From positions 64,001 through 128,000 of the IMG/VR virus record IMGVR_UViG_3300045988_149468: 64,000 nucleotides of DNA; one strand, written 5' to 3'. The translations under genes were made by a program, and so were the position numbers. This DNA comes from a virus. Shown here piece by piece: positions 31,046 to 62,049 of this stretch. How positions within the stretch are numbered: position 1 is the stretch's first letter; each line of letters begins with the position of its first letter. The notes beneath the pieces were generated by a model, which did no database searches, had not been told where the DNA came from, and worked only from the letters and a program-made list of their open reading frames with translations.

Positions 31046-31046
31046 A

Positions 31047-45286: not shown

Positions 45287-45337
45287 TGGTTTTTTTAAAT
45301 AAAATGAGGCGGATAATTATCCACCTCTTATTAATTA

Positions 45338-46426: not shown

Positions 46427-46505
46427 AATACCAACCTCCAATATTTATTAACTAATATTTTTTATTCCCAACCTCTTCCACCCTATTATTAATTTCTATA
46501 TTCAA

Positions 46506-47633: not shown

Positions 47634-47739
47634 AATATCGACCTCCAATATTTATTAATTAATATTTTTGTATCCCACCCAACCAATCCCTTATTAATTA
47701 CTATATTAATATATTACTACATTTTACATTATTTGTCAA
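47634..47739 (-). promoter_or_regulatory. Early promoter + extended G-rich leader
   Basis: TTGACA-AATAATGTAAAATGTAG-TAATAT, then AATATAGTAATTAATAAGGGATTGGTTGGGTGGGATAC...AATTAATAAATATTGGAGGT. The leader is duplicated upstream of the next gene (46427-46505). Confidence 0.5.
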
Positions 47740-47917
47740 TATCTAATTTTATTTCTTTTAAAAATCTACCAATTGTATATAATTTATCTTTATAATCTAC
47801 TAAATATTTTTCTTCATTTTTTAATTTTAAATCTTTTTCCGCCTCCATCAAAGTACTATATTCTTTTATATATTTCATATTTCCCATTGAAACTAATTTT
47901 ATCATTAAACATCATCA

Positions 47918-47971
47918 ACTCCTTATTAATTTATATATTCATATAATATCATATTTGTTAAATCTTGTCAA
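47918..47971 (-). promoter_or_regulatory. Early promoter + conserved leader
   Basis: TTGACA-AGATTTAACAAATATGA-TATTAT, then ATGAATATATAAATTAATAAGGAGTTG. The downstream coding is only short ORFs (19 and 52 codons in different frames). Confidence 0.5.
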
Positions 47972-47979
47972 TGACTATT

Positions 47980-48705
47980 TTATTTTTTAGGAGTACCACA
48001 AGACAATTTGCCTTCGGGACAAACACCATAAACACATGGGGCATCTATCCTACTAAATAATATTGGGCAAACTTCTTTACATTCTTGTAACATTAGTTCT
48101 GCTAATTGTCTTATTTCACTTTGCGCTCTATGACATAATCTTTTACTAAAGAAATTATATAAACTTCTAACATTCATACTTACTATTATTTTAGTTTCAC
48201 TTGCATTTGGTAAAACATATCTAGCATTTTCATTTGCAACTTTAGTACTATTCATACCATATGTAGGATAATCTGTATCTTCCACAAATTGTTTTATATT
48301 ACTTTGCCATTTCAAGTACATTTTATGTATTTTTAATATATCTTGTTCATATTCTTTTATAGCATCCTCACCCATCGCTATTATAACATCAGGTGTGATA
48401 AATTCAAATTTACCTTCTTCCTCCTTTACATAACGTTGTGATTGTTGACTATAAGATGCAATTCTATGTCTTACTAGTTGGTGAGAACAGCATCTTGATA
48501 TTCCTTCTATTGCAAAAGTAAAAGAACAATGTTCTAATGGACTTTCATGTCCCATATCAACTAAATTCTTTATAAATGTTTGTATTTTTTCTTCAGTTAA
48601 ATTTTCTTCTAGTTCATCTATTCCTACTGGTGAATAACATAATTTACCTGCCATTGCAACTACTTTTTCTAATCCCTGTGTATAACCTATTAATTTACAT
48701 TTCAT
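47980..48705 (-). CDS. thyX: FAD-dependent thymidylate synthase ThyX
   Basis: Diagnostic ThyX motif RHRxxSxxxxSxRY is present as LVRHRIASYSQQSQRY, plus SPLEH and NxRxxxHF-type blocks. Confidence 0.85.
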   Translation of the reverse strand: MKCKLIGYTQGLEKVVAMAGKLCYSPVGIDELEENLTEEKIQTFIKNLVDMGHESPLEHCSFTFAIEGISRCCSHQLVRHRIASYSQQSQRYVKEEEGKFEFITPDVIIAMGEDAIKEYEQDILKIHKMYLKWQSNIKQFVEDTDYPTYGMNSTKVANENARYVLPNASETKIIVSMNVRSLYNFFSKRLCHRAQSEIRQLAELMLQECKEVCPILFSRIDAPCVYGVCPEGKLSCGTPKK

Positions 48706-48799
48706 ATTAATTACCTCCTAATACAATTTTTTTATTTTTTTCTACTGTAAGCCTTTTTAGTTTTTACTCCATAAATATTATACTATATAAAAGATAGAA

Positions 48800-49243
48800 T
48801 TAATATTGTTTTAATTGTTTTTCAATAGATTCTAATTGTTCTTTTAATATTTGTTTTTTCATTTTTAATTCTACAATTTCAAATCCTTTAACAAAATCAA
48901 ATTTATCATCTTTATGAACTTTTGCAGTAACAATTTTGCCTTTATTATTCGCTCTTTTCATTTCAAACATCTTATCGTTATATCTATAAAGAATTTTGTA
49001 AGAAATATTTCCAAATAAAAATATAGTATTATCTATCCAATCACTCCAATTATTAGTACTAAACATTTCCTCAAATATTGCTTCATCTACTTCAATAGAA
49101 TTTTTATTTTCATCTTGCATTTTAATTCGGAAACTAGACTTTCCTGTTTCATCAGATGAGGTTGTTGTACTTGTTACTTTATATTCTTTATTATTTAATT
49201 TACATATAGCTTTATCACCTATTTGAATTTTAAACATTAACAT
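48800..49243 (-). CDS. Hypothetical protein (paralog of 49670-50071)
   Basis: Shares IGxKxICKLxNKEYxxS...WSxWI....LYRYNxxxFEM....VHxxDxFxFxKGxExVxLxMK with the second copy. Start may be the ATG at 49237. Confidence 0.5.
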   Translation of the reverse strand: MLMFKIQIGDKAICKLNNKEYKVTSTTTSSDETGKSSFRIKMQDENKNSIEVDEAIFEEMFSTNNWSDWIDNTIFLFGNISYKILYRYNDKMFEMKRANNKGKIVTAKVHKDDKFDFVKGFEIVELKMKKQILKEQLESIEKQLKQY

Positions 49244-49572
49244 CCCTCCTCCATTTCCATTTTTCTAAGATTCCAATTCTCAATCCAATCATCTAAATCA
49301 TTTTCTTTATAACCTACACTTTTTACCCATTTTGTAAATTCTTCTACTGTGGCATTTATTGGTCTAAAATGTTTTAATACTTCATTAAATGGTTGTAAAT
49401 AATTTTCTATTACTTCTCTTGCTTCCTTCTTAGCATATTCCTTATTGTATCCTCTTTCCATTATTACGTTTACATAATCTTCTTCTGTCATATCTGAATG
49501 AGTCACTGTGTCTATTACAGTTGAAAATCTACAATATAATGCATTGGGTTGTTTAGCTATAAATCCTGCCAT
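49237..49572 (-). CDS. Hypothetical protein
   Basis: 111 aa; SD AAGGAGGTAAAATA. Confidence 0.5.
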   Translation of the reverse strand: MAGFIAKQPNALYCRFSTVIDTVTHSDMTEEDYVNVIMERGYNKEYAKKEAREVIENYLQPFNEVLKHFRPINATVEEFTKWVKSVGYKENDLDDWIENWNLRKMEMEEGC

Positions 49573-49669
49573 TATTTTACCTCCTTATATTTTATCATTA
49601 TCAATTACACAATATGAACAACTTTCAGTTAAAGAATAACTTACTCCTAATATTCTTATTTATAACCTC

Positions 49670-50071
49670 CTAAAATGTTTTTATTTTATTTCTTGTATTA
49701 TATAAACATTCACTAATTATTTTTTCTTTCATTCTTAATCCCACAAGTTCAAGTCCTTTATAAAAATTAAAATCATCTTCGGGGTGAACCCTTGCTTGTA
49801 CTAAATATTCATCATCCATTGTCGTCATTTCAAATGCATTTTCATTGTATCTATATAATACATCAATAGATAAACCTAAAACTTTTATATCGGTCTTAAT
49901 CCATTTACTCCAACCTTGTTTGAATAATTTATTAACTAAATTATATTGTATTTCAAATTTATTTTCTTTATTACATAATGTTATTTTATCTCTAAACGTT
50001 CCTATATTTGAAATTTGATATTCTTTATTATCTAATTTACATATCATTTTTTGTCCTATTTTTAATTTCAT
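49670..50071 (-). CDS. Hypothetical protein (paralog of 48800-49243)
   Basis: The ATG at 50071 follows TTGGAGGTTGTAAAA. See the paralog for the shared pattern. Confidence 0.5.
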   Translation of the reverse strand: MKLKIGQKMICKLDNKEYQISNIGTFRDKITLCNKENKFEIQYNLVNKLFKQGWSKWIKTDIKVLGLSIDVLYRYNENAFEMTTMDDEYLVQARVHPEDDFNFYKGLELVGLRMKEKIISECLYNTRNKIKTF

Positions 50072-50099
50072 TTTTACAACCTCCAATAAAATTATATTT

Positions 50100-50285
50100 T
50101 TATTTCCAAACTATCGCTTTACCTTTCATCATATTTTCCCAATATTCACGAGGGGAATTTCCTCTTACATATGGATAACCTTTATTTATCGCTTCATGTT
50201 CGGTAATAAATTTACAACTGTCTGGACTAAATTTATTACCACCATCTATTATAGCTAATACCATTTCATTCTTTTTTATATTCAT
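50100..50285 (-). CDS. Hypothetical protein
   Basis: 61 aa; SD AGGAGGCATAAAA. Confidence 0.4.
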   Translation of the reverse strand: MNIKKNEMVLAIIDGGNKFSPDSCKFITEHEAINKGYPYVRGNSPREYWENMMKGKAIVWK

Positions 50286-50296
50286 TTTTATGCCTC

Positions 50297-50494
50297 CTAT
50301 ATTTTAATTTTAAATCCTTTTAATTCTATTCCATTTTCTATATTTTCTATTAAATTTATTATAATATCACTTATAATATTAAACTTTAATTCTCTTGTTA
50401 CATCCACATTATTTTGAAATATTTTAAAATTCCATACTTCATTCGAATTGTACTTTATTTTATATTTGCTATCTTCAATAATTATAGTTTTCAT
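50297..50494 (-). CDS. Hypothetical protein
   Basis: 65 aa; SD GAAGGGGATACA. Confidence 0.4.
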   Translation of the reverse strand: MKTIIIEDSKYKIKYNSNEVWNFKIFQNNVDVTRELKFNIISDIIINLIENIENGIELKGFKIKI

Positions 50495-50517
50495 TGTATC
50501 CCCTTCGATTTTATTAA

Positions 50518-50907
50518 TTAATAAGTAATACCAAATCCATAAAATTCATCTACTGTTTTAAATATATTATCACCATAACATCCATAATCATCATCACAAT
50601 CTAATTCTCTAACACCTTCGTCATCTAATACTTTACACCATGAGCATACAACATTAGCCATTAACGATGCTGATATACCTCTTTCATCTTGACATTTTTC
50701 CCAACCAAAAGCCACATCGTTTTTTAATTGTGCTAAAACATTATCTCTAGTCCATTCTAATGGTTTATGATTTTCATCACTCGTTACATAATTAATTTCA
50801 TTCATTTGTTCTTTTGTTAAAAAGTCACAAAATCTTATTCCAAATCTATCATCTAAAAAAGTTTCATACTCTTTATAATTATTTAATACCTCTTGAATTG
50901 TTTTCAT
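50518..50907 (-). CDS. Hypothetical protein
   Basis: 129 aa; SD AGGAGGTATAAATAAA. Confidence 0.45.
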   Translation of the reverse strand: MKTIQEVLNNYKEYETFLDDRFGIRFCDFLTKEQMNEINYVTSDENHKPLEWTRDNVLAQLKNDVAFGWEKCQDERGISASLMANVVCSWCKVLDDEGVRELDCDDDYGCYGDNIFKTVDEFYGFGITY

Positions 50908-50921
50908 TTTATTTATACCTC

Positions 50922-51104
50922 CTATATTTTAATAATTTTAATTTTACTTCCTTTAATTAATTCTAATTCACTAACCACTTGTTTAACTTCTTTATAATTT
51001 GTGAATCTTTGAGCATGAACTACATTTTCATTTAATACTATATTATTAGTCCCAAATTCTTTACCCATATAATATTTGTTATCTACTTTAATTATATAGT
51101 TCAT
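50922..51104 (-). CDS. Hypothetical protein
   Basis: The ATG at 51104 (MNYIIKVDNKYY) follows AAGGAAGTGATAAGA (listed ORF extends to 51149, into the leader). Confidence 0.4.
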   Translation of the reverse strand: MNYIIKVDNKYYMGKEFGTNNIVLNENVVHAQRFTNYKEVKQVVSELELIKGSKIKIIKI

Positions 51105-51166
51105 TCTTATCACTTCCTTATTAATTATCATATTCATATTATATATCAATAAATTTATTTTGTCAA
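51105..51166 (-). promoter_or_regulatory. Early promoter + conserved leader
   Basis: TTGACA-AAATAAATTTATTGATA-TATAAT, then ATGAATATGATAATTAATAAGGAAGTG. Confidence 0.6.
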
Positions 51167-51196
51167 TATATAATATGAATATTTTTAATTTATTTT

Positions 51197-51937
51197 TTAT
51201 TCGTCTTTTACTTCATCATATTCAATATCATCTATTATTTCTATAGCATCCTTTAATGATTCTACATATGTATCAAATTCTTCTTGTGTCATTTGTAGTT
51301 TAGTTTCTTCATCTTTTAATAATTCTACATCATCTACTACTTTTATTCCTAGATCTTTAAAATAATCAATACATTCATCAACAGTTAATGTCTGTGGTTC
51401 AGCTTTAGTAAATATGCCTAACTCAACGCAATCATCATAATTAAACCATTGATCTACTTCTTGATTTTGAATTAACCAATTTTTCTCTATCTTAGTTCTA
51501 CTAACTATAAATTCATTATATCTATCTTCCATTTCCATATAGAAGTCATTAAGTCTTTGATTAGATGTTACTTTACCATACTCAAACGTAGTTGATATAT
51601 GATTCATTAGCATACAAAATTTAGAACCATCTCTTTCATCTCCTAATAAAAAGATAAGAAATGCACAACTACAAGCTTGATTAGTTACATACGTTTTTAT
51701 AGTAATACCTAATTCTTTTAGTTTATCTACTTCAGTTTTTATTCTACTAAAACCACTAACACAACCCCCAACTGAATCTATACTAAGAGTAACACTTCCT
51801 ATTATTTCTCTTGAATAATCTAAAAAATTATTTATTAGATATTTATCGTAATCATATATTGTTCTTAGTTCATCTACTACTTTTGTTGTTAATTCTTCTG
51901 TTATTTCGCCGTTAATATCTATAGTTCTCTCTATCAT
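51197..51937 (-). CDS. ClpP-like (S14 family) serine protease with acidic C-terminal extension
   Basis: SIDSVGGCVSG (compare INSPGG), NQACSCAFLIF (Ser nucleophile block, compare AASMG) and MLMNHIS (His block, compare MIHQP). The ATG at 51937 follows AAGGAGTGATAATT. Confidence 0.55.
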   Translation of the reverse strand: MIERTIDINGEITEELTTKVVDELRTIYDYDKYLINNFLDYSREIIGSVTLSIDSVGGCVSGFSRIKTEVDKLKELGITIKTYVTNQACSCAFLIFLLGDERDGSKFCMLMNHISTTFEYGKVTSNQRLNDFYMEMEDRYNEFIVSRTKIEKNWLIQNQEVDQWFNYDDCVELGIFTKAEPQTLTVDECIDYFKDLGIKVVDDVELLKDEETKLQMTQEEFDTYVESLKDAIEIIDDIEYDEVKDE

Positions 51938-51965
51938 AATTATCACTCCTTATTAATTAATATAT

Positions 51966-52745
51966 TTAATCTGTTATTTCTACTTCGTAATTAGACAATG
52001 CTTGATATAATCTTTGTGGTATTTTATCTTTGTAGTAGTCAGCTACTAGCTTGATATTGTTTTCTTTGTATTCTTTATAAACTTCAAATGCTTGTTCAGG
52101 TGTATTATAATCTCCTAAATATGTTTGCTCTGATTTACCAGTCTCAGGATTAAGTAAACTACAACCTACCCTAAATTTTTTAGTGCGTTTTTCATAACAT
52201 ACTCCAACAGGATATTTACCTCTTTTACTATCTCTTTTAGTGAATAATAGATTTATCTTTTCAGGTACGTAAATGCAAGTCTCTGCTGAATATATTTTAT
52301 TGTTTTTTACTAATATGTCTTTATCTAATGTCGTTCGTTGTCCTTCTATTTCATAGTAGTTTTCACTATTCCAATATCCGAAGTTTTGATAATTTAGCCA
52401 TTCATCAGATGCTTTACATTGATTATATGTATGATGTTTCTCGTGAAATTTAGAATCATAACATCTTCTAAGCATATCTTTCCATGTTATATAACATTTC
52501 GTATATTTTCCATTTTCTTTACTTTTATATTTACCTTCTCCTAAACATCCATGTTCATACACTCTAGGCTCATATGGACATTTTATTTCGCCATTTTTAA
52601 AAGCACTATAGTATACACTTTCAACAACATAATTATATTCTTCAAAATATACATCAACATCATGACAATTTCTGTATTTAACTATTACCATTTCACTACC
52701 AAAGTTATTATATCCTACTTCACCAGTTCTATCTAATTTGCTCAT
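51966..52745 (-). CDS. AP2-domain homing-endonuclease-like protein (paralog 3 of 3)
   Basis: Collinear with the other two copies. C-terminal GVCYEKRTKKFRVGC....YLGDYNTPEQAFEVYKEYKE is an AP2 pattern. Start is 1 nt after the sigma-factor stop. Confidence 0.55.
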   Translation of the reverse strand: MSKLDRTGEVGYNNFGSEMVIVKYRNCHDVDVYFEEYNYVVESVYYSAFKNGEIKCPYEPRVYEHGCLGEGKYKSKENGKYTKCYITWKDMLRRCYDSKFHEKHHTYNQCKASDEWLNYQNFGYWNSENYYEIEGQRTTLDKDILVKNNKIYSAETCIYVPEKINLLFTKRDSKRGKYPVGVCYEKRTKKFRVGCSLLNPETGKSEQTYLGDYNTPEQAFEVYKEYKENNIKLVADYYKDKIPQRLYQALSNYEVEITD

Positions 52746-52746
52746 A

Positions 52747-53409
52747 TTATCCTACCTTTCTCATTTTAGCTAATCCACCTTTTATAATCCTTGAAACTTG
52801 TGCTTGACTAATGTTATGTTTATTGGCTATATCTTTTTGTGGTGTATTTTTAAAAAATTGTTCTATTATCATATATTTTTCTCTTTCAGTTAAAACTTCA
52901 AATAATGATTCTAAATACAAGTTAGTGTCAAAATCTACTTCGTATCCGAAGCTGTCTTGAAATTCATTTTTCTTATCACATTCATTGTTATCTGCTTTAC
53001 TATTTAAAGATGATACTTTGAAATTTATATTTATTAATTCTTCAATTTCTTTAACATCTTTGTTTAATTCTTTGGCTACATCTTCTATTGACATTATTTT
53101 AATTAATCTATCTGCTTTACGTTTATTAATTAGTAACTGTTGAGCATAATGTATTCCTTCTCTAGTATGTCTACTATAATGTTCTATTTCCCTCATTATA
53201 TTGTAAATAGCAAACGTTGAGAATTTAATATTATATTTAGGATCAAAAGCATCTGCTGATTTTACTAATCCTATAACGCCTACATTAAACATATCTTCAT
53301 ATGAATGTTCTATTGCTTCATAATGTAATTTTCTTTTTAATGTGTAATCTACTAATCTAATATTATCAAGTATAAAATGTTCCCTTTGTTCTTTTGTATC
53401 GAATCTCAC
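52747..53409 (-). CDS. Sigma-70 family RNA polymerase sigma factor (phage-encoded, copy B)
   Basis: Region 2 (DMFNVGVIGLVKSADAFDPKYNIKFSTFAIYNIMREI) and region 4 HTH (KDIANKHNISQAQVSRIIKGGLAKMRK). Confidence 0.75.
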   Translation of the reverse strand: MRFDTKEQREHFILDNIRLVDYTLKRKLHYEAIEHSYEDMFNVGVIGLVKSADAFDPKYNIKFSTFAIYNIMREIEHYSRHTREGIHYAQQLLINKRKADRLIKIMSIEDVAKELNKDVKEIEELININFKVSSLNSKADNNECDKKNEFQDSFGYEVDFDTNLYLESLFEVLTEREKYMIIEQFFKNTPQKDIANKHNISQAQVSRIIKGGLAKMRKVG

Positions 53410-53446
53410 TTCAACCCTCTCCCCTTATTAATTAATATATTCGTAT

Positions 53447-54520
53447 TTAATCATTTAGCTTATAAATTTTATTACACATATCATTTAGATCGTATTGTAA
53501 ATATTTCATGTATTCACTTTTTAATATAAAATCTTGTTTCTCTAAAAAATTAATTACTATCTCTGGGTTAATTTTAAACCACTCACCAAAGGTTCTATAT
53601 TCTTCAAAATATTTATGTACATCTTTTTCAATAGCAAATGCATTACTGCATATCATTGATTTATATATTAATTCTAATTCAATTCCAGCACCAGTTTGTA
53701 GTTGTTTAATTCTCTTATCAACATCTTGAGCAACTCCTATCTTAACTGTCTCATTAAGTGGATTTTTAATTACATAAATATATTGTCTTAATTTATTATT
53801 TTGAGGTAATACTTCATCTAATACTTTTGCTTTAAACATATTCATTATAGCTATTTTCATCTTTTGAAATGCTAATATAAATTTAGCTCTATATTCAGTA
53901 GAATATTTTAACATTAATTGCATTGTTGCCATTTCACCTAATTCATATTGTGTGTATATTTGACCATTTTCAGCTAAGTATGTAGTTTCTTTAAAATCAT
54001 TTATTATAATTTCACTATCCAAATTTGGATTATGAATTTCTTTTAATTTACTTATTTCTTCTCTTATATCTCTTAATATATGAAAGTGTTCTTTACCTGT
54101 AACTTCAGCTATAACTTTAGATGTAGTTATTGGAATACCATCTTTACTTATAACTAAATTATCTATATTACCTTGAAATGTAGTGTTTTCAATAGTTGTA
54201 AGTATATCAAGTGATTTCTTGCGTATATTTTCAAAATAATCCATATATCTATCAGTAAACAAGTTACCTTTTTCACCTGTCGTTTTATGAGCCAAAAATT
54301 CACATCCTCTTTTTAGTATTTCAAAACATCTATTTGTTTTTCCACTCTTATCAGTATATTCGTTTTCTATCCAATATTTACTAAGCTCAATTTTGCGCTC
54401 AGTAAAAGTTGAATTAATATTATCTATTTTTCTTAATAAATTCTTATGTGACATTTCCATCATTTCAGCAACTTCTCTACTATTTATAGTTTTGACTCTT
54501 CTTTTAGTTAATTCATCCAT
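53447..54520 (-). CDS. Rha-family regulatory protein fused to a T5orf172/GIY-YIG-like C-terminal domain
   Basis: The N-terminus (INSREVAEMMEMSHKNLLRKID) is Phage_pRha-like. The C-terminus (YIYVIKNPLNETVKIGVAQDVDKRIKQLQTG....FGEWFKI) fits the T5orf172/MUG113 pattern. Confidence 0.6.
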   Translation of the reverse strand: MDELTKRRVKTINSREVAEMMEMSHKNLLRKIDNINSTFTERKIELSKYWIENEYTDKSGKTNRCFEILKRGCEFLAHKTTGEKGNLFTDRYMDYFENIRKKSLDILTTIENTTFQGNIDNLVISKDGIPITTSKVIAEVTGKEHFHILRDIREEISKLKEIHNPNLDSEIIINDFKETTYLAENGQIYTQYELGEMATMQLMLKYSTEYRAKFILAFQKMKIAIMNMFKAKVLDEVLPQNNKLRQYIYVIKNPLNETVKIGVAQDVDKRIKQLQTGAGIELELIYKSMICSNAFAIEKDVHKYFEEYRTFGEWFKINPEIVINFLEKQDFILKSEYMKYLQYDLNDMCNKIYKLND

Positions 54521-54566
54521 TTTTTATTACCCCCTTATTAACTAATATATTTATATTATATCATGT

Positions 54567-55256
54567 TTAAGCCACTTCGTCAAGAATATGTTTTCTCATT
54601 TTATCTAATGCTTTTCTTATTTTTTTTCCTATTGACTGCTGACAATAAGGATATTTTTTACTCATTGACGTTTGTGTTTTGTCATAAAAAACATAATCTA
54701 TAACCATGTTTTTTTCTTCATCTGTTAATACACTTAGCATATTTTCAATTCTAAATTTTTCATCATAGTCTATATAAATATGTAGATCTTTTATACAATC
54801 CATTATTTCCAAATCTTCATCATCTGATTTTATATTTGAATTTAATCTTAATTGCGAATAATTTATATCTTTAATTTTTTTAACTTCATCAACTGTTAGT
54901 CCTAATTTTTCAGCTATTTCTTCATCATTCATACGTGGACTATATTCATCAATTTTATTTTTATTCAATACAACTTTTCTCCCAAATCGAATACCACCTT
55001 TTACTTCTTTTGTAGCATTAAAGACTGAGCCACATATCCACTTCATTGCATATGAACTGAAACTATATCCTTTATTTGTTTCATATTTATCTACTGCACG
55101 AATTAATCCTGTTAATGCTATTTGTCTTGCATCATCTTTAGTAAGTTCATTACTATAAAAATCATAAAATAAGAATTTGTTTTTTATTGCATATTCTACC
55201 AAGCCTATATTATCTTCTATAAATTTATCTCGTTCTGCCTTCGTTTTAAATTTCAT
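54567..55256 (-). CDS. Sigma-70 family RNA polymerase sigma factor (phage-encoded, copy A)
   Basis: Region 2 (ARQIALTGLIRAVDKYETNKGYSFSSYAMKWICGSV) and a region 4-like C-terminus (TQTSMSKKYPYCQQSIGKKIRKALDKMRK). Confidence 0.7.
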   Translation of the reverse strand: MKFKTKAERDKFIEDNIGLVEYAIKNKFLFYDFYSNELTKDDARQIALTGLIRAVDKYETNKGYSFSSYAMKWICGSVFNATKEVKGGIRFGRKVVLNKNKIDEYSPRMNDEEIAEKLGLTVDEVKKIKDINYSQLRLNSNIKSDDEDLEIMDCIKDLHIYIDYDEKFRIENMLSVLTDEEKNMVIDYVFYDKTQTSMSKKYPYCQQSIGKKIRKALDKMRKHILDEVA

Positions 55257-55310
55257 TTGAATCTCACCTCTTATTAATTATTATACTTATATTATATCAC
55301 ATCCTATTAA

Positions 55311-55583
55311 TTATTTTAATAAATCTTTTATATTTTTTATAATTTCTTCAAAATTTTTACTTTCACATTCATAATATATACAGGTATTTTTATTGATATT
55401 AAATTTACATTTTATATCAATATCTTTTACTCCTCCGATTTGATATATTTCTCTAACTACATTATGTTTGCAAGTAGTACAAGATTTTTGTTCCTTTGAA
55501 TTTAGTAATAAATGATAAGCGTATAAATAATTTTTTAATTTTTTATCATCTGATAATTTAAAATTATCACTAAAAGTACTCAT
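55311..55583 (-). CDS. Hypothetical protein
   Basis: 90 aa, several Cys. Confidence 0.4.
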   Translation of the reverse strand: MSTFSDNFKLSDDKKLKNYLYAYHLLLNSKEQKSCTTCKHNVVREIYQIGGVKDIDIKCKFNINKNTCIYYECESKNFEEIIKNIKDLLK

Positions 55584-55586
55584 TAT

Positions 55587-55994
55587 TTATCCCTCCAACA
55601 ACTCTTTATTTTCGTACACATTTCCTATAACTGTACCAAATTCAACTTGGGCATCACATATCAATTCTTCATCTCCATCTGCATAATAATCAAAATAGCA
55701 AACAAAGAATGCTCCTCGTTTATATACTATTTTTCCTATATGTTCCCAAGTTGAACCTATTTCTCTATCGTCTACTCCTTCTAATCTTATTATATCCCCT
55801 TCATAAATTTCTTTACCATTAATGTCATAACAATTGGTATATTGCATTACTACATAATTATCATATTCTAAAACATCTTTAAAACTTTCTTCAAAACAAC
55901 CACCATTATTAATCATAAAGTCATATGTATCCTGTACATCATAATACATTTTCTTTTCTTTCTTATCCCATGCCCTAAACTTAATTTCTCTCAT
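55587..55994 (-). CDS. YopX family protein
   Basis: Canonical N-terminus MREIKFRAWDKKEKKMYYDV plus the later EGDII and GNVYEN blocks. Confidence 0.75.
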   Translation of the reverse strand: MREIKFRAWDKKEKKMYYDVQDTYDFMINNGGCFEESFKDVLEYDNYVVMQYTNCYDINGKEIYEGDIIRLEGVDDREIGSTWEHIGKIVYKRGAFFVCYFDYYADGDEELICDAQVEFGTVIGNVYENKELLEG

Positions 55995-56299
55995 TATTTA
56001 TTCTCCTTTAATTCAATTATATAATCTTTATTATTAAATGCACCAGAACATCCTACGCTTTGTATAGGTTTACGTGATATCTCAGGAGTAATTTCATAAT
56101 TAGTTAATACACCATTAGAATATTTACAAGATTTCATTTCATTATAAATAACTGTTATATATCCCCATTCATAAGGTCTTTCTTTAAAAATTGCTTTAAT
56201 AAATTGTCCAACAGTATATGGTTTATCTAAATACACATACCATTCACTCGTATAATCTGGATAACGTTCACCTTCTTTAAATCTTATCATTTTATTCAC
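55994..56299 (-). CDS. Hypothetical protein (paralog of 63058-63303)
   Basis: Shares YSNGxL......EIS...IQxVxC......NKDYIIxxKE with the second copy. Confidence 0.45.
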   Translation of the reverse strand: MNKMIRFKEGERYPDYTSEWYVYLDKPYTVGQFIKAIFKERPYEWGYITVIYNEMKSCKYSNGVLTNYEITPEISRKPIQSVGCSGAFNNKDYIIELKENK

Positions 56300-56501
56300 C
56301 CAACTCCCTTACTATCTTTCCCCAACATTCAGAACAATTATGATAATCACATTCTTCTTTTTCATATTTACTTTCACTATTAGTATAATAATTATAAGGG
56401 CATCTACTTAATAATTCTGCTAATCTCATAAAATTTTGTATTCCTAAATAATTATAAACATCTTTAAGTAACACATCTCTTTGAAATTTTAGGGTATACA
56501 A
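56292..56501 (-). CDS. Small Cys-rich protein, possibly 5'-truncated/altered by the IS insertion
   Basis: Only a TTG start with no SD. The frame stays open up to the transposase stop codon at 56532, suggesting the native 5' end was displaced by the IS. Confidence 0.35.
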   Translation of the reverse strand: MYTLKFQRDVLLKDVYNYLGIQNFMRLAELLSRCPYNYYTNSESKYEKEECDYHNCSECWGKIVRELGE

Positions 56502-57922
56502 CTTTAAGTGTGGAAAATAAAAGAGAGTGAATTAAAATTTATCACTCTCTAATACCTCTAGTAATTGTGGAATATCTACTCCAAAACCTTCTGTTAATTT
56601 TGTACTTCCTACGAAATCATTCCAACTAAATGCCGTAGTAAATGTATATGTTTTGTTACTTGTATTTGCTCTTGTATATTTAGGTTTTCTAGTTGCACTT
56701 GTACCGAATAATACCTTTGCTCTAAGCACCTCGAATGAGTAACCTCTACCAGCTTTCTCGATGTTCTTAATCAAGTTATTTAAACTTTCTGTATAAGCAT
56801 TTGTAATTCTACAAGTAAAATAGTTAAATATCTCATACTGCCAGTTATCAACTGTTTTGATTACATCTTGATAGTATTTCATATCCTTTGGAACTGCTTT
56901 TTTCCAGTCCTCATAAGCTTTTAAAGCATCTTCTCGATTATCATGTTTATAGATATCTCTGAATTGTTCCTTCAATTCATAAGCTAACTTTAATTGTGGA
57001 AAATCTAGAAACATTAGTTGCATATCCCAAATCTGTCTAGCATTTAAATCCTCTTTGTTCCTCAGTAGCAAGAATCTATCTTTTAACAGTTTAGACCTTT
57101 GTTTCTTGTCTAATGAGCCTTTAAACGACTTTCTCTCACCTTCTAATGCATTGTTGACTAATTGTATTACATGGAATCTATCAACGATTACCTGAGCATT
57201 TGGCAACTCCTCATATACTGCCTCTTTGTAGTATCTCCACATATCTATGGTTACTACTTCTATGTTCTCCTTGTTAGGCAATTTGATTAAAAAATCCTTT
57301 ACATCGGATTTCTTACGGCTTGGTTGAATATCTAATACCTTACGTCCAATTATATCGGTGTAAACGGCTCTCATTGACTTATTAAGATGCACCTCATCTA
57401 TTCCTAATATAACTGGAGTAAGGAAGGTCATATCATTTTCTAACTTTTCTATGTAACTGTTAAACACTCGCTTGACTGTGGTAGGAGAGATACTATATTC
57501 CTCTGCTATATTAGCAAACGGCTTTTTAAGAGATTCTTTTTCTATCTGTTCTCTTAAACGAATAGTGATTTTATCTCTATCGTCTATGCTTTCATAATGT
57601 TGGCTAAATGTTGTATCACAGTATCTACATTTATATCTATGTGTATGTATTTCAATCCCTACACGTTTCCCAAAGCTGTTTAAATCCCTTACAAATCGTT
57701 TTGATTTGCCATGCTTATAATATTCAACTCCACCACACTCTGGGCAAGCTACAGGCTCTTTAACTGGTTTTACTATTACCGTCATATCGTGGTCATCTTG
57801 TATTGTGTCTAAAACTTCAAATTCTGGTAAATTTAGTATATTCATTTTGTCTATTCTCTTTCTAGTAATTTGTATTTTTGTATGAGTCTATTAAATTGCA
57901 TATATTTTTTATAAAAATTTCA
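56482..57922 (-). mobile_element. ISL3-family insertion sequence (borders approximate)
   Basis: Intact ISL3 transposase. The only terminal inverted match seen by eye is TGAAATTTT (56482-56490) with AAAATTTCA (57914-57922), followed by partial similarity. No convincing 8-bp target duplication found. Confidence 0.5.
56532..57845 (-). CDS. ISL3 family transposase
   Basis: N-terminal zinc-finger block (CPECGG...YKHGKSKRFVRDL....HRYKCRYCDTTF), HTH and DDE domain (LGIDEVH...VTIDMWRYY...ESLNN), typical of ISL3. Confidence 0.9.
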   Translation of the reverse strand: MNILNLPEFEVLDTIQDDHDMTVIVKPVKEPVACPECGGVEYYKHGKSKRFVRDLNSFGKRVGIEIHTHRYKCRYCDTTFSQHYESIDDRDKITIRLREQIEKESLKKPFANIAEEYSISPTTVKRVFNSYIEKLENDMTFLTPVILGIDEVHLNKSMRAVYTDIIGRKVLDIQPSRKKSDVKDFLIKLPNKENIEVVTIDMWRYYKEAVYEELPNAQVIVDRFHVIQLVNNALEGERKSFKGSLDKKQRSKLLKDRFLLLRNKEDLNARQIWDMQLMFLDFPQLKLAYELKEQFRDIYKHDNREDALKAYEDWKKAVPKDMKYYQDVIKTVDNWQYEIFNYFTCRITNAYTESLNNLIKNIEKAGRGYSFEVLRAKVLFGTSATRKPKYTRANTSNKTYTFTTAFSWNDFVGSTKLTEGFGVDIPQLLEVLESDKF

Positions 57923-58356
57923 GTATATTTATCTATAAAATCATCTAATCCACATAAGAAGTCAGCTTGTCCATCTAATGTTCCCCAAATTATACTGCAC
58001 TCATCTAATGCAATAGATAAATCACAATTAAATGAATTGCATTTAAGAAGGTTCGTCTTTTCTGACATATCTTGTATAAGTTCTTTTAAATCCCAACCTT
58101 CTCTGTTTTGTAAGAATTCTTTCATGTCTTTTAACTTATCTACATACTTTGTTTTTACTTCATCTAAATCAACAAAATACTCCATTGGAACATTTAAAAC
58201 TACTGATATTTCTATTAACATCTCCAAAGGTGGTATTATTTCGCCCGATTCGTATTTTTGTATAGTTCTTACATTTTTATCAATTAATTCAGATAATTGT
58301 TTTTGAGTTATTTTTTTATCCTTTCTTAATGATTTGATTTTTTCCCCTATAGTCAT
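57862..58356 (-). CDS. XRE-family HTH transcriptional regulator
   Basis: N-terminal MTIGEKIKSLRKDKKITQKQLSELIDKNVRTIQKYESGEIIP (HTH_3). The C-terminal ~20 codons may be IS-derived if the IS border is at ~57922. Confidence 0.75.
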   Translation of the reverse strand: MTIGEKIKSLRKDKKITQKQLSELIDKNVRTIQKYESGEIIPPLEMLIEISVVLNVPMEYFVDLDEVKTKYVDKLKDMKEFLQNREGWDLKELIQDMSEKTNLLKCNSFNCDLSIALDECSIIWGTLDGQADFLCGLDDFIDKYTEIFIKNICNLIDSYKNTNY

Positions 58357-58511
58357 ATCATCACCTCTATTCGCTAAAGAATAAATCTATTATTAAGGTT
58401 AGAATGTTTTGCCTATATTTTCTTCCAACCAGGCATCTACTTTATCAACTAATATATTTATTTTTTTACCTGTTCTTATCATTGGAAAACCTACAGTGTG
58501 TATTTATTAAT

Positions 58512-58619
58512 ATTATACCACAGTTAAAGTTATAATTTCCACAGTTAAAGTTATTTTAAGTAATAAATTTTATATTCACTTGTCAAAGTACGTTTTCTTA
58601 TTAATCCACAGTTATAGTT
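58512..58619 (-). promoter_or_regulatory. Extended -10 promoter overlapped by three direct operator-like repeats
   Basis: CCACAGTTAAAGTT at 58518-58531 and 58539-58552 (21-nt phasing), and CCACAGTTATAGTT at 58606-58619. The leftward strand reads TGGTATAAT (extended -10, + coords 58512-58520), which overlaps the first repeat. Confidence 0.5.
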
Positions 58620-58744
58620 TCATACCCAAATTTTATTCTCTTTGTATCTATTAAGTCATTTTTGCATTGATTCAATTCTTCATTTGATGCATAAAAATTA
58701 TGATCTTCTTGATCTAAAATATAATAATCATCTTCATATCTCAT
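58601..58744 (-). CDS. Small ORF (47 aa, not in ORF track)
   Basis: Its ATG overlaps the upstream stop (ATGA). Translation: MRYEDDYYILDQEDHNFYASNEELNQCKNDLIDTKRIKFGYETITVD. The 3' end contains the third operator repeat. Confidence 0.35.
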   Translation of the reverse strand: MRYEDDYYILDQEDHNFYASNEELNQCKNDLIDTKRIKFGYETITVD

Positions 58745-58986
58745 TTTAATTCCTCCAATACAATTTTAATAGCTTTTATTTGTTTTTCTAAATCTGTAAT
58801 TTCATTTCTCAATTTAACTTTATTTTTATCCTTTTCGTTTTCACATACAATCCTTAATATCATTAAATCAAGATTTTTATTCCTATGTTGTGTTATTAAC
58901 CACTCTTGATGTTCTTTCAATTCTTCCATTAATTCAATTTTTAAATAATCTTTGTACATCTTAATGTAAAAGTTTAAATCTTTCAT
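58741..58986 (-). CDS. Hypothetical coiled-coil protein
   Basis: The ATG at 58986 (MKDLNFYIK) follows AGAGGTAATATT (listed ORF extends to 59019). Confidence 0.45.
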   Translation of the reverse strand: MKDLNFYIKMYKDYLKIELMEELKEHQEWLITQHRNKNLDLMILRIVCENEKDKNKVKLRNEITDLEKQIKAIKIVLEELK

Positions 58987-58996
58987 AATATTACCT

Positions 58997-59527
58997 CTAT
59001 TTGAAAACTTCATCGTCATAATGATTTAATATTGCATTATGATAAAACCAAATTGTATCTAAATCTATTGGTGTAAAATTATGACAATCAACTGATACGT
59101 TTAAACCATAAGATTTTACCATGCATAATTTATGAATATGCCCAAATAAATTAATATTAGTTTCATTTATTTTTCTATTTTTAATTTTACTTGGTTCATG
59201 TGCCATAGTGATAACTTTATTTTCTATAAATATTTGTGCTATATCAGATTTTTTTATAAATTTTTCTTTATCTAAATACTTCCACACATTTAAATCTTTT
59301 CTTTCATAATTACCTAGAATTAAACAAATTTTTCCGTTTAACTGTTCTGCAATTTCATAATTACCAAAATCTCCTAAATGAAATACACCATCATGTTCAG
59401 ATATAACATTGTTCCAATTATTAATCATTGTTTGATCCATTTCTTCTACTGAATTAAAAGGTCTTTTACTTAATTGTAATGTTCTTTCACTTCCAAAATG
59501 TGTATCACTTGTAAACCATATTTTCAT
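58997..59527 (-). CDS. Calcineurin-like metallophosphoesterase
   Basis: Motifs WFTSDTHFG, HLGDFGN, GNYE and GHIH. The ATG at 59527 follows GAGGTGGAATAAA. Confidence 0.75.
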   Translation of the reverse strand: MKIWFTSDTHFGSERTLQLSKRPFNSVEEMDQTMINNWNNVISEHDGVFHLGDFGNYEIAEQLNGKICLILGNYERKDLNVWKYLDKEKFIKKSDIAQIFIENKVITMAHEPSKIKNRKINETNINLFGHIHKLCMVKSYGLNVSVDCHNFTPIDLDTIWFYHNAILNHYDDEVFK

Positions 59528-59542
59528 TTTATTCCACCTCAT

Positions 59543-59629
59543 AATAAAAATTCCATTTTAACTGTTTTTAACCCTCCTTATTAATTTCTATGTTAATTAT
59601 ATTATAATTTAAAATTTCTAATATGTCAA
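59543..59629 (-). promoter_or_regulatory. Early promoter + conserved leader
   Basis: TTGACA-TATTAGAAATTTTAAAT-TATAAT, then ATAATTAACATAGAAATTAATAAGGAGGG. Confidence 0.6.
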
Positions 59630-59761
59630 CTGATTTTCTAACATTTTTTCATTGAATATCAATATTTTATATGCTAATGAAATAGCAGTAGAGGGATCGA
59701 TCCCTCTATCCACATATACTTTTGCTAATTCTACTATATTACTTACTTTATCTAATGTCAT
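59618..59761 (-). CDS. Small ORF (47 aa, not in ORF track) containing a 20-bp palindrome
   Basis: ATG at 59761 follows AGGAGATAATTAAT. Translation: MTLDKVSNIVELAKVYVDRGIDPSTAISLAYKILIFNEKMLENQLTY. Confidence 0.35.
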   Translation of the reverse strand: MTLDKVSNIVELAKVYVDRGIDPSTAISLAYKILIFNEKMLENQLTY

Positions 59762-59821
59762 ATTAATTATCTCCTATTCTTTTAGTGTTTAATTATGTAT
59801 ATAATTACTTAACAATTAGTC

Positions 59822-60019
59822 CTATTCACATTCATTTTCTAATTTTTCCCACAAATCCCAAATTTCTTTATGAAACTTACAATTTGCATAACATTGTATT
59901 CTTGGGTTATTTTGATATTTTTCAATATAACAACCTGAACGACATATTTGTCCTATGCCTTCATAATAAATATCCTTCAGTAATTGTTGCTCTTTCTTGC
60001 TAAATTTAAAAGTTTTCAT
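59822..60019 (-). CDS. Hypothetical Cys-rich protein
   Basis: 65 aa; SD TAGGAAGGTATAATT. Confidence 0.45.
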   Translation of the reverse strand: MKTFKFSKKEQQLLKDIYYEGIGQICRSGCYIEKYQNNPRIQCYANCKFHKEIWDLWEKLENECE

Positions 60020-60099
60020 AATTATACCTTCCTATATCTCAACTTATCTTTTTCTATATGATTTTGATTTGTTATAATATACCGTTGCATAAAACTTAT

Positions 60100-60260
60100 A
60101 AAAAGTTATAAACTCGTAATTTTTATTTTATTTCCTTCTTCATTGAATTCTATTTTGCCGAAGCTACTCTAGTTTGGTGTAACTCTCCAAAGGCTTAAAT
60201 TCGGGTACAACGCTCCCTACATCAAATTAGTATTTCTCTCCATTCACCTATACTAATTCG
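60100..60260 (-). ncRNA. Candidate TnpB omega-RNA scaffold / IS605-type right end
   Basis: Immediately 3' of tnpB there is a locally GC-richer, ORF-free stretch. The leftward strand reads GGUGAAUGGAGAG...GUAGGGAGCGUUGUACCCG...GGAGAGUUACACC...GAGUAGCUUCGGCAAAAU, with several complementary segments. The position matches where omega-RNAs are encoded. Ends not defined. Confidence 0.4.
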
Positions 60261-61369
60261 TAATTACTTAAATTAATGCTTGCATTATAATCTCTATTTA
60301 TTTCTAAACCACAATGTTTGCATACATAAGTTCTGTCTTTTAATTTCAAGTCTATTTTAATATTTCCACAATTAGAACAAGTTTTGCTTGAAGGATAATA
60401 TCTATCTACCTGTATAAATTTAATACCATTCCATTCGCATTTATATTTCATTTGTCTTATAAATTCATATAAACATTGTTCAGCAATAGCTTTTGATAAA
60501 TGTTTATTTTTCATCATGCCAACTATATTTAAATCTTCCATAACAACTCTATAAGGTTTTTCATTTACTATTCTTGCAGTTGATTGATGAATATGATTAT
60601 TTCTAATATTAGACAAACGTCTATAAATCATTTTAGCTTTATGTTCTAATTTTATAATGTTTTGAGTTTTAACAAACTTATTTCTTTGTTTATTATACTC
60701 ATACTTTCTTGAAATTTGTCTTTGAGTTCTTTTAAGTTGTTTCTTTAATTTCTTTACTCTTTTAGTTTTATTGATGTTTTTTATTGTTATTCCATTTGAA
60801 CATACAGCAAGTTCTTTAACTCCTAAATCTATGCCGATGCTTAATTTTGGATTTAAGGTAGTTTGGTTTTCTTCTACTTCAACTCCAAAAGATAAATACC
60901 AATATCTTCCGTCATAACTACAATAAGGATTACTATATTTGCAATTTGGTATCTTATAATTTGTTTTAAATTTTACTTTGCCTATTTTCTCGATATTACA
61001 AACATTATCCTTAAAGTAAAGAGCATCGTATCTTACATAAAAAGATTGTTTTGATTTTCTTTTTGATTTAAATTTAGGATATTTACTATTCTTTTTAAAA
61101 AAGGATTTAAATGCTTTATCTAAATTTCTCATACTTTCTACCATAGCTGTATTTGAAACTTCATTCAACCATTTATAATCTTCTTGTTTCTTAAGTTGTG
61201 TAAATTCTTTCCTTATATTACTCATTGAATATTTTTCACCTGATTCATAATGTTCATTGCATTTACTCAATGCCCAATTATAAGCGAATCTACTACAACC
61301 GATTGTTTTAAACATCAATTCTTCTTGCTGTTCTGTAGGAATAAGTCTAATCTTTAATGATTTTAGCAA
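60248..61369 (-). CDS. tnpB: TnpB (IS200/IS605-family OrfB, RNA-guided endonuclease)
   Basis: N-terminal MLKSLKIRLIPTEQQEELMFKTIGCSRFAYNWAL (OrfB_IS605 HTH). RuvC-I IGIDLGVKELAV, RuvC-II VMEDLNIVGM, and a zinc ribbon CSNCGN....CKHCGLEINRDYNASINL carrying RuvC-III. TTG start. Confidence 0.85.
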   Translation of the reverse strand: MLKSLKIRLIPTEQQEELMFKTIGCSRFAYNWALSKCNEHYESGEKYSMSNIRKEFTQLKKQEDYKWLNEVSNTAMVESMRNLDKAFKSFFKKNSKYPKFKSKRKSKQSFYVRYDALYFKDNVCNIEKIGKVKFKTNYKIPNCKYSNPYCSYDGRYWYLSFGVEVEENQTTLNPKLSIGIDLGVKELAVCSNGITIKNINKTKRVKKLKKQLKRTQRQISRKYEYNKQRNKFVKTQNIIKLEHKAKMIYRRLSNIRNNHIHQSTARIVNEKPYRVVMEDLNIVGMMKNKHLSKAIAEQCLYEFIRQMKYKCEWNGIKFIQVDRYYPSSKTCSNCGNIKIDLKLKDRTYVCKHCGLEINRDYNASINLSNYELV

Positions 61370-61437
61370 TTCTTGTCACCTCCTTTATGTTATTAATTAT
61401 TATATTTATAATATATCATAAAATTATTGAAATGTCA
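61370..61437 (-). promoter_or_regulatory. Phage-type early promoter + leader driving tnpB
   Basis: TTGACA-TTTCAATAATTTTATGA-TATATT, then ATAAATATAATAATTAATAACATAAAGGAGGTG. Confidence 0.55.
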
Positions 61438-61508
61438 ATAAATATTTATATTTTTTATAAATATTTATTTAACTATGTATCACCCCCTTCCTATATGTAT
61501 TACTTATC

Positions 61509-61817
61509 TTATTTTCTAAAATTTTTTGGAACATTTCTATAATGTTGTGGTTTTTCTTCGCCATCAATTATTCTCTGTAATCGTTCCACATATTTCTTAT
61601 CTTTAGCTAATCTTAATAAACTAACTAAGAAATATTTGTTTGTTTTTTTTGGAATTTTATTTTTCAATACACAATCTATTGCATATTGTGTTTGTTCATA
61701 CTTTTGCAAATGAGTATGTCCTTCTTGAAAAGGTTTTTTCATGTTATACACTATGTAATTTTTATGCTCTTTGCTGTAAAATACTTTGAAGTTCTTCTTT
61801 GTGTAAACTAAATCCAT
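61509..61817 (-). CDS. Hypothetical basic protein
   Basis: 102 aa. Confidence 0.45.
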   Translation of the reverse strand: MDLVYTKKNFKVFYSKEHKNYIVYNMKKPFQEGHTHLQKYEQTQYAIDCVLKNKIPKKTNKYFLVSLLRLAKDKKYVERLQRIIDGEEKPQHYRNVPKNFRK

Positions 61818-61824
61818 TTAATCA

Positions 61825-62049
61825 TCACCTATTATAAAAATTTTTAACTGCTTCAATTGTTGCTAATTCTTTTATCAAGTGTTCATAAACTTGTATTGCT
61901 TTCTTGTCATCTGTATTTTTAGAACAATAATTATAACCATTATTGAATCTTTTTAATAAATGCTGATAATAACCATTTAAAGCTTTTATAAATTCTTCTC
62001 TTTCCCTCAATTTATCACCTCCCTTCCTGTTATTAATTAATATATTCAT
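61825..62049 (-). CDS. Hypothetical protein
   Basis: 74 aa, preceded by a conserved leader variant. Confidence 0.45.
   Translation of the reverse strand: MNILINNRKGGDKLREREEFIKALNGYYQHLLKRFNNGYNYCSKNTDDKKAIQVYEHLIKELATIEAVKNFYNR

Follow-up and report, generated by a model that had tools for sequence, protein, structure and literature searches.

A 64,000-nucleotide (nt) stretch of DNA from a gut phage, positions 64,001 to 128,000 of the IMG/VR record IMGVR_UViG_3300045988_149468 (this whole stretch is the window in what follows), carries on its minus strand one copy of tnpB, the gene for a putative RNA-guided nuclease. In front of the gene stand a promoter and a leader that appear to be of phage type, and behind it lie a guide-RNA scaffold, a 20-nt guide and a short fragment of an allele of a neighbouring gene, here called X (Table 1). 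Most tnpB genes in genomes have no adjacent transposase, and what keeps such genes intact is an open question. The protein, of 373 amino acids (aa), matches the Pfam families HTH_OrfB_IS605 (PF12323), OrfB_IS605 (PF01385) and Cas12f1-like_TNB (PF07282), each above its cut-off, giving a layout of an N-terminal HTH, a RuvC-containing OrfB_IS605 domain and a zinc-ribbon TNB domain. The closest solved structure is chain 8iaz_A (E 6e-74), which, going by the agreement in catalytic numbering, should be the IS607 TnpB from ISFba1 described by Ren et al. 2024 (PMC11061315). When the two are aligned, D181, E278 and D360 of the window protein fall on D194, E290 and D371 of ISFba1, the last of which is an alanine in the deposited chain (the D371A mutation), and all four zinc-finger cysteines (C331, C334, C350 and C353; CxxC…CxxC) are kept. 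A preliminary description of the locus, made from the letters alone, had recognised an intact TnpB with RuvC-I, RuvC-II, RuvC-III and zinc-ribbon motifs, and this careful alignment, in which no catalytic residue is substituted, bears it out. The gene starts with a TTG codon 7 nt 3' of AAGGAGGTG. Relative to the closest, intron-bearing relatives its ratio of nonsynonymous to synonymous changes (dN/dS) is 0.13-0.28, which is not above the values among those relatives themselves. A nucleotide search of a phage collection matched tnpB only, at 73% to the Clostridium phages c-st and D-1873.

The guide RNA ('reRNA') of IS607-family TnpBs is built around RAGATH-18 as its core (Ren et al. 2024, PMC11061315). 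This RNA starts shortly past the stop codon, has conserved 5' and 3' flanks and bears the guide, with an optimal length of 20 nt, at its end (PMC11061315). An Rfam scan by E-value of 59500..62000 returned RAGATH-18 directly downstream of tnpB as the sole match, in line with the guide RNA (omega-RNA) suspected there; it also lies 3' of tnpB in every fetched homologous locus that reaches this region, and the layout of the scaffold is that of the published reRNA (PMC11061315). With a RAGATH-18 reRNA wholly downstream of the open reading frame (ORF), the element is by its sequence features of the IS607/IStron type and not of the IS605 type to which it had been assigned. In an alignment of 15 homologous 3' regions, conservation runs to …TTATAAGTTTTATGCAACGG and then ends, which places the right end at 60082 (…GCAACGG); the full end, …TATAACTTTTTATAAGTTTTATGCAACGG at 60110..60082, finishes in GG and includes the subterminal right-end motif of Table 1, a putative binding site of serine TnpA. 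An independent line of evidence for this boundary is that homology to a relative without the tnpB and guide-RNA module (the cassette), contig L034, picks up again at 60083. Given a right end at 60082, the guide is 60081..60062. The consensus fold of the 15 homologues (RNAalifold) consists of the RAGATH-18 stems and a long-range helix in which CGUUG of the 5' flank pairs with CAACG directly ahead of the guide; this helix covaries, and compensatory changes occur at 13 of the 24 consensus pairs. The folding energy of the single 3' sequence is no better than that of shuffled versions (z = +1.6), so the evidence for structure is the covariance model together with the compensatory changes. The 3' stretch had been described as GC-richer, ORF-free and self-complementary. 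The first two properties hold (60150..60247 has 40.8% G+C vs 25.7% for the window, and 60020..60247 contains no ORF of at least 40 aa), while the third fails as a matter of fold energy and is replaced by structure seen through covariation.

As for the rest of a transposon, only this right end is left, without transposase, left end or intron, and the copy does appear immobilised, as had been proposed. A tblastn search of the window with the serine TnpA of a homologous element gave a best E of 1.2, and no Resolvase or Y1 transposase domain was present among the Pfam hits for ~50.2-64 kb or in 30 further ORFs, in agreement with the earlier failure to see a TnpA; the search for TnpA took in the 64-kilobase (kb) window and 7 kb beyond it, out of a contig of 140 kb, with ORFs of 120 aa or more considered in 1-50 kb. 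A left-end profile built from ten left ends of relatives (nhmmer) found no left end upstream of tnpB, which agrees with a motif scan; its only significant match in the window is the right end, inverted, at 60081..60120 (E 3e-5). No group I intron (Intron_gpI) was detected in 59500..62000 at E up to 10. The preliminary description had instead argued that there was no room for an IS605 subterminal hairpin. This argument is void, as IS607 ends have no subterminal hairpins (Žedaveinytė et al., 10.1101/2023.11.20.567912), and it is the profile that shows the left end to be missing. Upstream of the gene, homology to other tnpB elements reaches no further than the ribosome-binding site (~61384), and with the intron-bearing relatives there is none beyond about -36. 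A candidate TAM (the short motif flanking a TnpB target) beside a left end, AGGAG at 61380..61384, was rejected, since the same AGGAGGTGA sits inside intact elements downstream of their introns (L139, L015).

The relatives fall at different distances. Four of them (L002, L003, L007 and L017) have a serine tnpA upstream, preceded by a left end with the right-end motif inverted. The closest ones, L139 (80% aa identity), L009 and L018 (75%), L010 and Clostridium phage c-st, carry a left end and a group-I-intron-like module upstream of tnpB, spanning ~570-710 nt in L139, L009, c-st and L010 and seen only in part in L018, whose contig stops short of the left end. The Rfam group I intron model gave no match on these closest relatives at E up to 0.01. 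Their module is homologous to the intron that Rfam does detect in L015, and on this homology they are IStrons without tnpA, a class that has been noted before (Žedaveinytė et al., 10.1101/2023.11.20.567912). The cassette in the window is thus, judged by its relatives, a tnpB/guide-RNA module most related to tnpA-less Clostridium IStrons, from which left end, intron and transposase have been lost.

The upstream side of tnpB looks like that of an ordinary gene of this phage. The TTGACA-N17-TATATT promoter reported earlier is present, with a TG extension, and the leader that follows it ends 20 nt from the start codon, just as had been estimated (~20 nt). This leader had been said to precede roughly two dozen other phage genes; allowing up to two mismatches, we count 31 copies in the window vs 2.4 expected (maximum in shuffled sequence, 6), most of them directly before a ribosome-binding site and about a dozen after a TTGACA/TATAAT promoter. 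A 29-nt pattern of the tnpB promoter (up to 5 mismatches allowed) matches the promoter of an unrelated Bro-N gene in contigs L140 and L141 with 4 mismatches, and the 20 nt after that promoter, leader included, are identical to the tnpB copy. These likenesses indicate that the promoter and leader of tnpB are of the phage's own type. The intact IStron L139 has its own promoter, TTGACA-N17-TATAAT-ataattaa-AGGAGGTGA, ~45 nt upstream of tnpB. A promoter near tnpB is, by this comparison, normal in intact relatives; what appears unusual is a phage-type promoter with only phage intergenic DNA upstream of it. Two facts make expression as an early gene plausible: the promoter agrees with the consensus for host sigma-A, and sigma factors are encoded by the phage itself. 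Terminator prediction found none between tnpB and the downstream 65-aa gene, which is probably co-transcribed with it.

The leader is of some interest in itself. In the form AATATAnnAATTAATAA, this 17-nt motif has 31 minus-strand sites in 20683..62046 (e.g. 25312, 35736, 51950 and 61390), before the ribosome-binding sites of ~25 genes. What stands ahead of a copy is in some cases a promoter and in others the stop codon of the gene before, and the motif contains in-frame TAA stops. Possible roles are those of a translational leader, a site of RNA processing or a joint for recombination.

Guide, target and alleles of gene X

A 38-nt fragment from the 3' end of gene X follows the right end and supplies, with its first 20 nt, the guide; the fragment is invariant in 11 cassette-bearing contigs. 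Exact matches to the guide 20-mer number 44 in IMG/VR and 64 in a metagenome collection, 108 in all, in 44 distinct contexts. In one context only is a 20/20 match preceded by AGAGG, and this is the orthologous site in X, found on contigs L034 and L092, both without the cassette, where identity goes on for another 18 nt to the stop codon. L034 is a 117-kb mosaic relative without the cassette, with collinear blocks of 90-97% identity to the window, and the gene that holds its guide match, at the 3' end, encodes 107 aa and is homologous to the X of the window (36% identity). The left-end flanks of related elements read AGAGG in three cases (c-st, L010 and L004), TGAGG in L139, GGGGG in L009 and ATGGG in L006. 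Because the flanks of the closest IStron left ends read AGAGG, the L034 site has the TAM expected for the clade.

The preliminary description had supposed a fixed guide aimed at a host locus, a competing phage or plasmid, or the empty allele in related phages. The last of these is what was found, namely AGAGG plus a 20/20 match in L034 and L092. A host-locus or plasmid target finds no place among the 108 exact matches, none of which, apart from the orthologous X site, has a G-rich motif next to it; most of these other matches belong to one unrelated marine phage group, in which the 20-mer follows ACATA, and they are due to chance or unrelated. The alignment with related phages lacking tnpB, which had been suggested as a way to find the insertion borders, likewise leads to this site, as homology to L034 resumes at 60083, at a TAM-flanked position in X. 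These related phages were obtained via the guide 20-mer and exact-protein look-ups; a search of IMG/VR by the flanking proteins gave one distant hit for one protein and none for the other.

In the marine contigs (many of L021-L064 and L065-L128) the exact 20-mer after ACATA is followed by caaaaagggagattaaATG. It looks like the conserved promoter or 5' untranslated region (UTR) of one marine-virus gene, unrelated to the TnpB system.

Two types of X allele can be told apart. The complete X of the window, upstream of the cassette, is of the R type (for resistant) and ends in …EEKPQHYRNVPKNFRK, with no AGAGG and with many mismatches at the site. The one stretch of guide-matching DNA in the window, the fragment itself, is an S-type (for sensitive) remnant and is preceded by AACGG, which is not a TAM. 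Cassette-free R-type X is common: the index of the collection lists it in 114 blocks, and among the ten places inspected are several ~140-kb genomes. A further allele, P0126 (L140 and L141), combines an R-like body with an S-type C-terminus, so that the 20/20 target follows AGAAG.

At these two sites (L140 3771..3795 and L141 2712..2736), AGAAG stands for AGAGG through a synonymous GAG-to-GAA change, which makes these alleles candidate escape variants.

Table 1. Features of the tnpB locus and its surroundings in window coordinates
Feature	Position	Strand	Basis or remark
tnpB (IS607-type, putative RNA-guided nuclease)	60248..61369	minus	373-aa ORF, Pfam, alignment to 8iaz_A
Guide-RNA (reRNA/omega-RNA) scaffold: 5' flank, RAGATH-18 core, 3' flank	60082..60247	minus	conservation in 15 homologues, covariation
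RAGATH-18 core (RF03064)	60132..60193	minus	68.2 bits, gathering score 44.9, E 7e-13, full-length model match
Right-end motif TATAACTTTTTATAAG	60095..60110	minus	exact match; inverted in left ends of relatives
Guide, 20 nt, TATATTATAACAAATCAAAA	60062..60081	minus	first 20 nt beyond the right end; one copy in window
3' fragment (38 nt) of S-type (sensitive) X allele, stop codon included	60044..60081	minus	38/38 identical to the 3' end of intact X in L034 and L140
Ribosome-binding site AGGAGGTGA	61376..61384	minus	start of homology to other tnpB elements; same site inside intact L139 and L015
Phage-wide leader motif AATATAATAATTAATAA, exact copy	61390..61406	minus	motif count in window
Sigma-70-type promoter TTGACA-N17-(TG)TATATT	61410..61438	minus	promoter scan, 11/12 consensus positions
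Intergenic DNA after X	61473..61508	minus	homologous to the spacer between X and the next gene in cassette-less phages and to 60020..60043
Gene X, R-type (resistant) allele, 102 aa, phrog_9079, function unknown	61509..61817	minus	no TAM or target; linked to cassette
65-aa gene, right-hand homology arm	59822..60019	minus	2-13% differences among cassette-bearing phages
47-aa gene, next-gene target of L146-type guide	59618..59761		GATAGAGGG, then 19/20 guide match

Proposed homing and its alternatives

A TnpB identical or 99% identical to that of the window occurs on at least 24 contigs from independent samples, with the next relative only 80% identical. The gene order X, cassette, 65-aa gene is kept in every contig that reaches far enough, and all 11 cassette-bearing contigs examined have the cassette at the same site. 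Diversity along this segment is very uneven. The 309 nt of X show 0 differences in every pair of cassette-bearing contigs, and the ~1446 nt of cassette and fragment show 0-5 per pair, plus a 19-nt indel private to the window. The next 420 nt differ at 8-55 positions, except in the pair L129/L135, which is identical there. The first polymorphism comes right after the stop codon of the X fragment, and the DNA beyond differs by 2-13% between the 11 backgrounds. X of cassette-less R-type phages differs from the cassette-linked X at 18-25 of 309 nt (6-8%). A near-clonal X and cassette, with a sharp rise in diversity after the guide, is the pattern that co-conversion would be expected to leave.

The cassette is flanked by a diverged direct repeat, 61473..61508 and 60020..60043. 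In cassette-less phages of the L144 type, R-type X is followed by GGAAGG and then directly by TATATTTATAACAATTCAAA, a diverged copy of the target (p ~0.005, by shuffling). This diverged copy is seen in L144, L149, L150 (~2832..2852) and L151, with 18 of 19 positions matching and one indel.

We consider it probable, at roughly 0.6, that tnpB and its guide RNA form a free-standing RNA-guided nuclease for homing or competition, stripped from an IS607 element and driven by a phage promoter; we infer expression of tnpB, cleavage, TAM preference and homing from the sequence. Under this homing model, the host RNA polymerase would transcribe tnpB with the RAGATH-18 reRNA in its 3' UTR, and TnpB would bind the scaffold (60247..60082) and use 60081..60062, a fossil of the S allele of neighbouring X, as its guide. 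The phage would not cut itself, given that its local guide match is preceded by AACGG and its own full-length X is an R allele without the site. Relatives with an S allele, i.e. with AGAGG and a perfect 20-nt match, would be cut in X during co-infection or superinfection of a lysogen, and the break would then be repaired from the cassette-bearing genome, or the competitor would be disabled. Such repair would copy R-type X together with the cassette, amounting to intronless, transposase-independent homing. The present layout might go back in one step to a double crossover in which an R-allele phage recombined with an S-allele phage that carried an IStron; one of the exchanges would have fallen in the promoter/leader region, where the likeness of the IStron leader to the phage leader could supply the crossover point.

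Several points weigh against this model. The TAM is deduced from six left-end flanks of relatives, which belong to another set of proteins than the TnpB of the window. Target-bearing alleles are rare, with S-type alleles on only 4 contigs (L034, L092, L140 and L141), two of them with AGAAG. The diverged target copy of L144-type phages may have been left behind when a cassette was lost, or may predate insertion. IMG/VR yielded no intermediate, which would be an S allele with an intact IStron inside it. The cassette-bearing contigs were retrieved by exact TnpB protein sequence, and the low diversity of tnpB is partly a matter of this ascertainment, which does not touch X, the promoter, the reRNA or the flanks. 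Finally, near-zero diversity cannot tell a recent homing sweep from simple recent common ancestry of the segment in highly mosaic phages.

The best surviving alternative, though in our view unlikely, is that the cassette is an inert relic: an IStron inserted in X, a later rearrangement removed its 5' half, and what remains has no cutting role and is intact only since these events are recent. The rarity of targets in the sampled population agrees with such a history, as does the loss of left end, intron and transposase, and with copies almost identical there has been little time for decay. Yet no damage is seen in the ORF, the catalytic residues, the zinc finger or the reRNA, and the cassette is joined to a strong promoter, a leader and a ribosome-binding site. 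The unit also occurs in many diverged backgrounds from independent samples, and an unrelated TnpB, that of contig L146 described below, has the same odd layout at a neighbouring gene.

Rather less probable than a relic is a cassette that is beneficial to the phage as a weapon or exclusion system, kept mainly since cutting S-allele relatives removes competitors, with copying as a side effect. That the target lies in competing relatives and not in the host speaks for this, and the promoter, fitting the host sigma-A consensus, could work in a lysogen of a phage whose window encodes a tyrosine integrase. There is also precedent in an intron-encoded endonuclease that mediates phage competition (PMC11620839). 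Such a role is inseparable from homing by sequence alone; the near-clonal linked X and the jump in diversity after the guide fit co-conversion. All in all, the data appear to fit a selfish homing element at least as well as a domesticated weapon.

The two remaining explanations are contradicted by the left-end profile and the catalytic residues, respectively. An ordinary mobile insertion sequence, i.e. a tnpB-only IS607 derivative with a short cryptic left end upstream of the promoter, inserted at the junction GGAAGG/TATATT and moved in trans by a serine TnpA encoded elsewhere, is very improbable. About 20% of IS607 loci are indeed tnpB-only (PMC11061315), L144-type phages read GGAAGG followed by TATATTTATAAC…, like an empty site, and 61440..61485 looks by eye like the L002 left end, at an equal distance from TTGACA. 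We rejected this candidate left end, as the ten-left-end profile gives no match there even at E = 100 and yet finds the inverted right end at E 3e-5. The likeness depends, moreover, on a 19-nt segment missing in every other contig that covers the region (9 of 10), and a similar AT-rich element precedes another promoter of the phage, near 55330. No TnpA was found in the window, and the cassette is a single copy, always at the same site. Least probable of all is an RNA-guided regulator like TldR, a domesticated TnpB that binds DNA without cutting: phage-encoded TnpB repressors of this kind are known (PMC10705468), but D181, E278 and D360 are intact in a full-length protein and the sole guide match in the window lacks a TAM.

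The 19-nt segment, TAAAAAATATAAATATTTA (~61439..61457), lies just upstream of the -35 box and creates an 11-bp inverted repeat. The element resembling it near 55330 is upstream of the promoter of a sigma-factor gene.

A second cassette and the phage context

Contig L146, from a related phage, encodes a 389-aa TnpB that is 49% identical to that of the window. Its tnpB stands behind a phage promoter and leader and has a RAGATH-18 RNA downstream (61 bits), and beyond its right end comes the 3' part of a 47-aa gene, of which a full-length, divergent allele lies just upstream. Preceded by GATAGAGGG, the orthologous site of the related phages examined departs from the guide of this cassette, ATCAATCCCTCTACTGCTAT, at 1-4 positions; with one exception, these mismatches are within the first 7 nt, next to the TAM. 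No exact target for it was found in IMG/VR. In the window, the 47-aa gene matches the guide at 19 of 20 positions (Table 1).

The target site in this gene is a perfect palindrome, TAGAGGGATCGATCCCTCTA, at 59689..59708, and the differences from the L146 guide across related phages change two codons. Changes in the 7 nt beside the TAM may reflect escape from cutting.

Taken together, these observations raise the question as to whether the locus is one case of a general process. We hold it possible, at slightly less than even odds, that ~140-kb gut Clostridia-type phages repeatedly convert IS607/IStron TnpB modules to transposase-independent, RNA-guided, free-standing homing genes, in which a fragment of the S allele would serve as guide and a linked allele would confer resistance. 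Such genes would sweep as natural gene drives, with targets answering by changes in the TAM (AGAGG to AGAAG) and in the seed.

The phage genome is, by its gene content, rich in homing-type nucleases. The minus strand holds two classical free-standing genes for HNH_3 endonucleases, at 23256..24035 and 26490..27035, one of which includes a NUMOD domain of the I-HmuI type, and a short way outside the window there is a GIY-YIG gene (L001 5219..6013). The tyrosine recombinase/integrase is encoded on the plus strand at 16199..17182, and the phage may be temperate or plasmid-like, as is Clostridium phage c-st; the integrase matters for the question of TnpB action from within a lysogen. A complete DDE transposase of the ISL3 family (437 aa; 56532..57845, minus) stands beside an HTH_19 gene (57862..58356) and is missing at the equivalent position in several related phages. 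The same 140-kb contig has a second, different tnpB (402 aa; L001 1..289), ~10 kb beyond window position 64000. No RAGATH-18-like sequence is seen by eye in the 230 nt after its stop codon.

Comparison with known systems

In its chemistry the cassette resembles IS607 with TnpB of the ISFba1 type (PDB 8iaz; PMC11061315). The protein architecture and catalytic triad are the same (E 6e-74), and so are the RAGATH-18 core with conserved flanks wholly downstream of the ORF, the 20-nt guide directly after the right end and the G-rich TAM. In contrast to ISFba1-type elements, the window cassette has neither serine TnpA nor left end, stands behind a phage promoter and leader and is a single fixed phage copy, and its inferred TAM, AGAGG, differs from those measured for IS607, which were AGGAG for 18 and GAGGG for 4 of the 22 strains (PMC11061315). 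Closer still in sequence are the IStrons of Clostridia (CboIStron and CseIStron; 10.1101/2023.11.20.567912), whose kin supply the nearest TnpBs (75-80% aa identity; L139, L009 and L018), the same right end, …TTATAAGTTTTATGCAACGG, and insertion inside a coding sequence beside a G-rich motif. Unlike these, the window lacks the ~500-nt left end plus group-I-intron module and the element's internal promoter, and the interrupted gene is not restored by splicing; a complete resistant allele stands upstream instead.

TldR proteins (PMC10705468) offer another parallel, being transposon-derived TnpBs with a fixed guide that phages keep without a transposase. TldRs have, however, lost RuvC activity and repress host genes, whereas the window TnpB has kept its catalytic residues and its guide matches a phage gene. 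For plasmids, a gene drive by IS605 TnpB, with TnpA-independent spread, goes by the name of 'transposon non-restorative homing' (Mears et al. 2025, cited after the review PMC13565253). There, as proposed here, TnpB cuts the empty orthologous site on a co-resident replicon, which is thought to spread the insertion without TnpA. That system is a laboratory plasmid with a complete IS605, as opposed to a natural phage population with a stripped IS607 module. The 2026 review (PMC13565253) treats this kind of homing in phages as a theoretical case only, and no natural phage example was reported in the literature searched.

The locus offers a concrete, testable answer to the question of what preserves a tnpB gene, for one natural transposase-less tnpB, in that guide, TAM-flanked target in relatives, resistant linked allele and sweep-like population pattern are all readable from it. 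If the homing model is true, it would represent natural RNA-guided intronless homing between viruses, and would illustrate one stage in the change of transposon nucleases into host-wired systems with a fixed guide. A compact nuclease of 373 aa with a defined reRNA and a candidate AGAGG motif would be a further gain.

In its logic the proposed system resembles the free-standing homing endonucleases SegF, SegG and MobE of T-even phages, which bring about intronless homing and localized marker exclusion. As in those systems, a nuclease gene with its own promoter lies between conserved genes, the target is the neighbouring gene in relatives without the nuclease, and the phage's own allele, resistant by divergence, would be carried along with it. 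The difference lies in recognition, which for SegF, SegG and MobE is a matter of the protein, whereas here it would be exerted by an RNA guide and a 5-nt motif, with the specificity coming from a retained fragment of the target gene itself.

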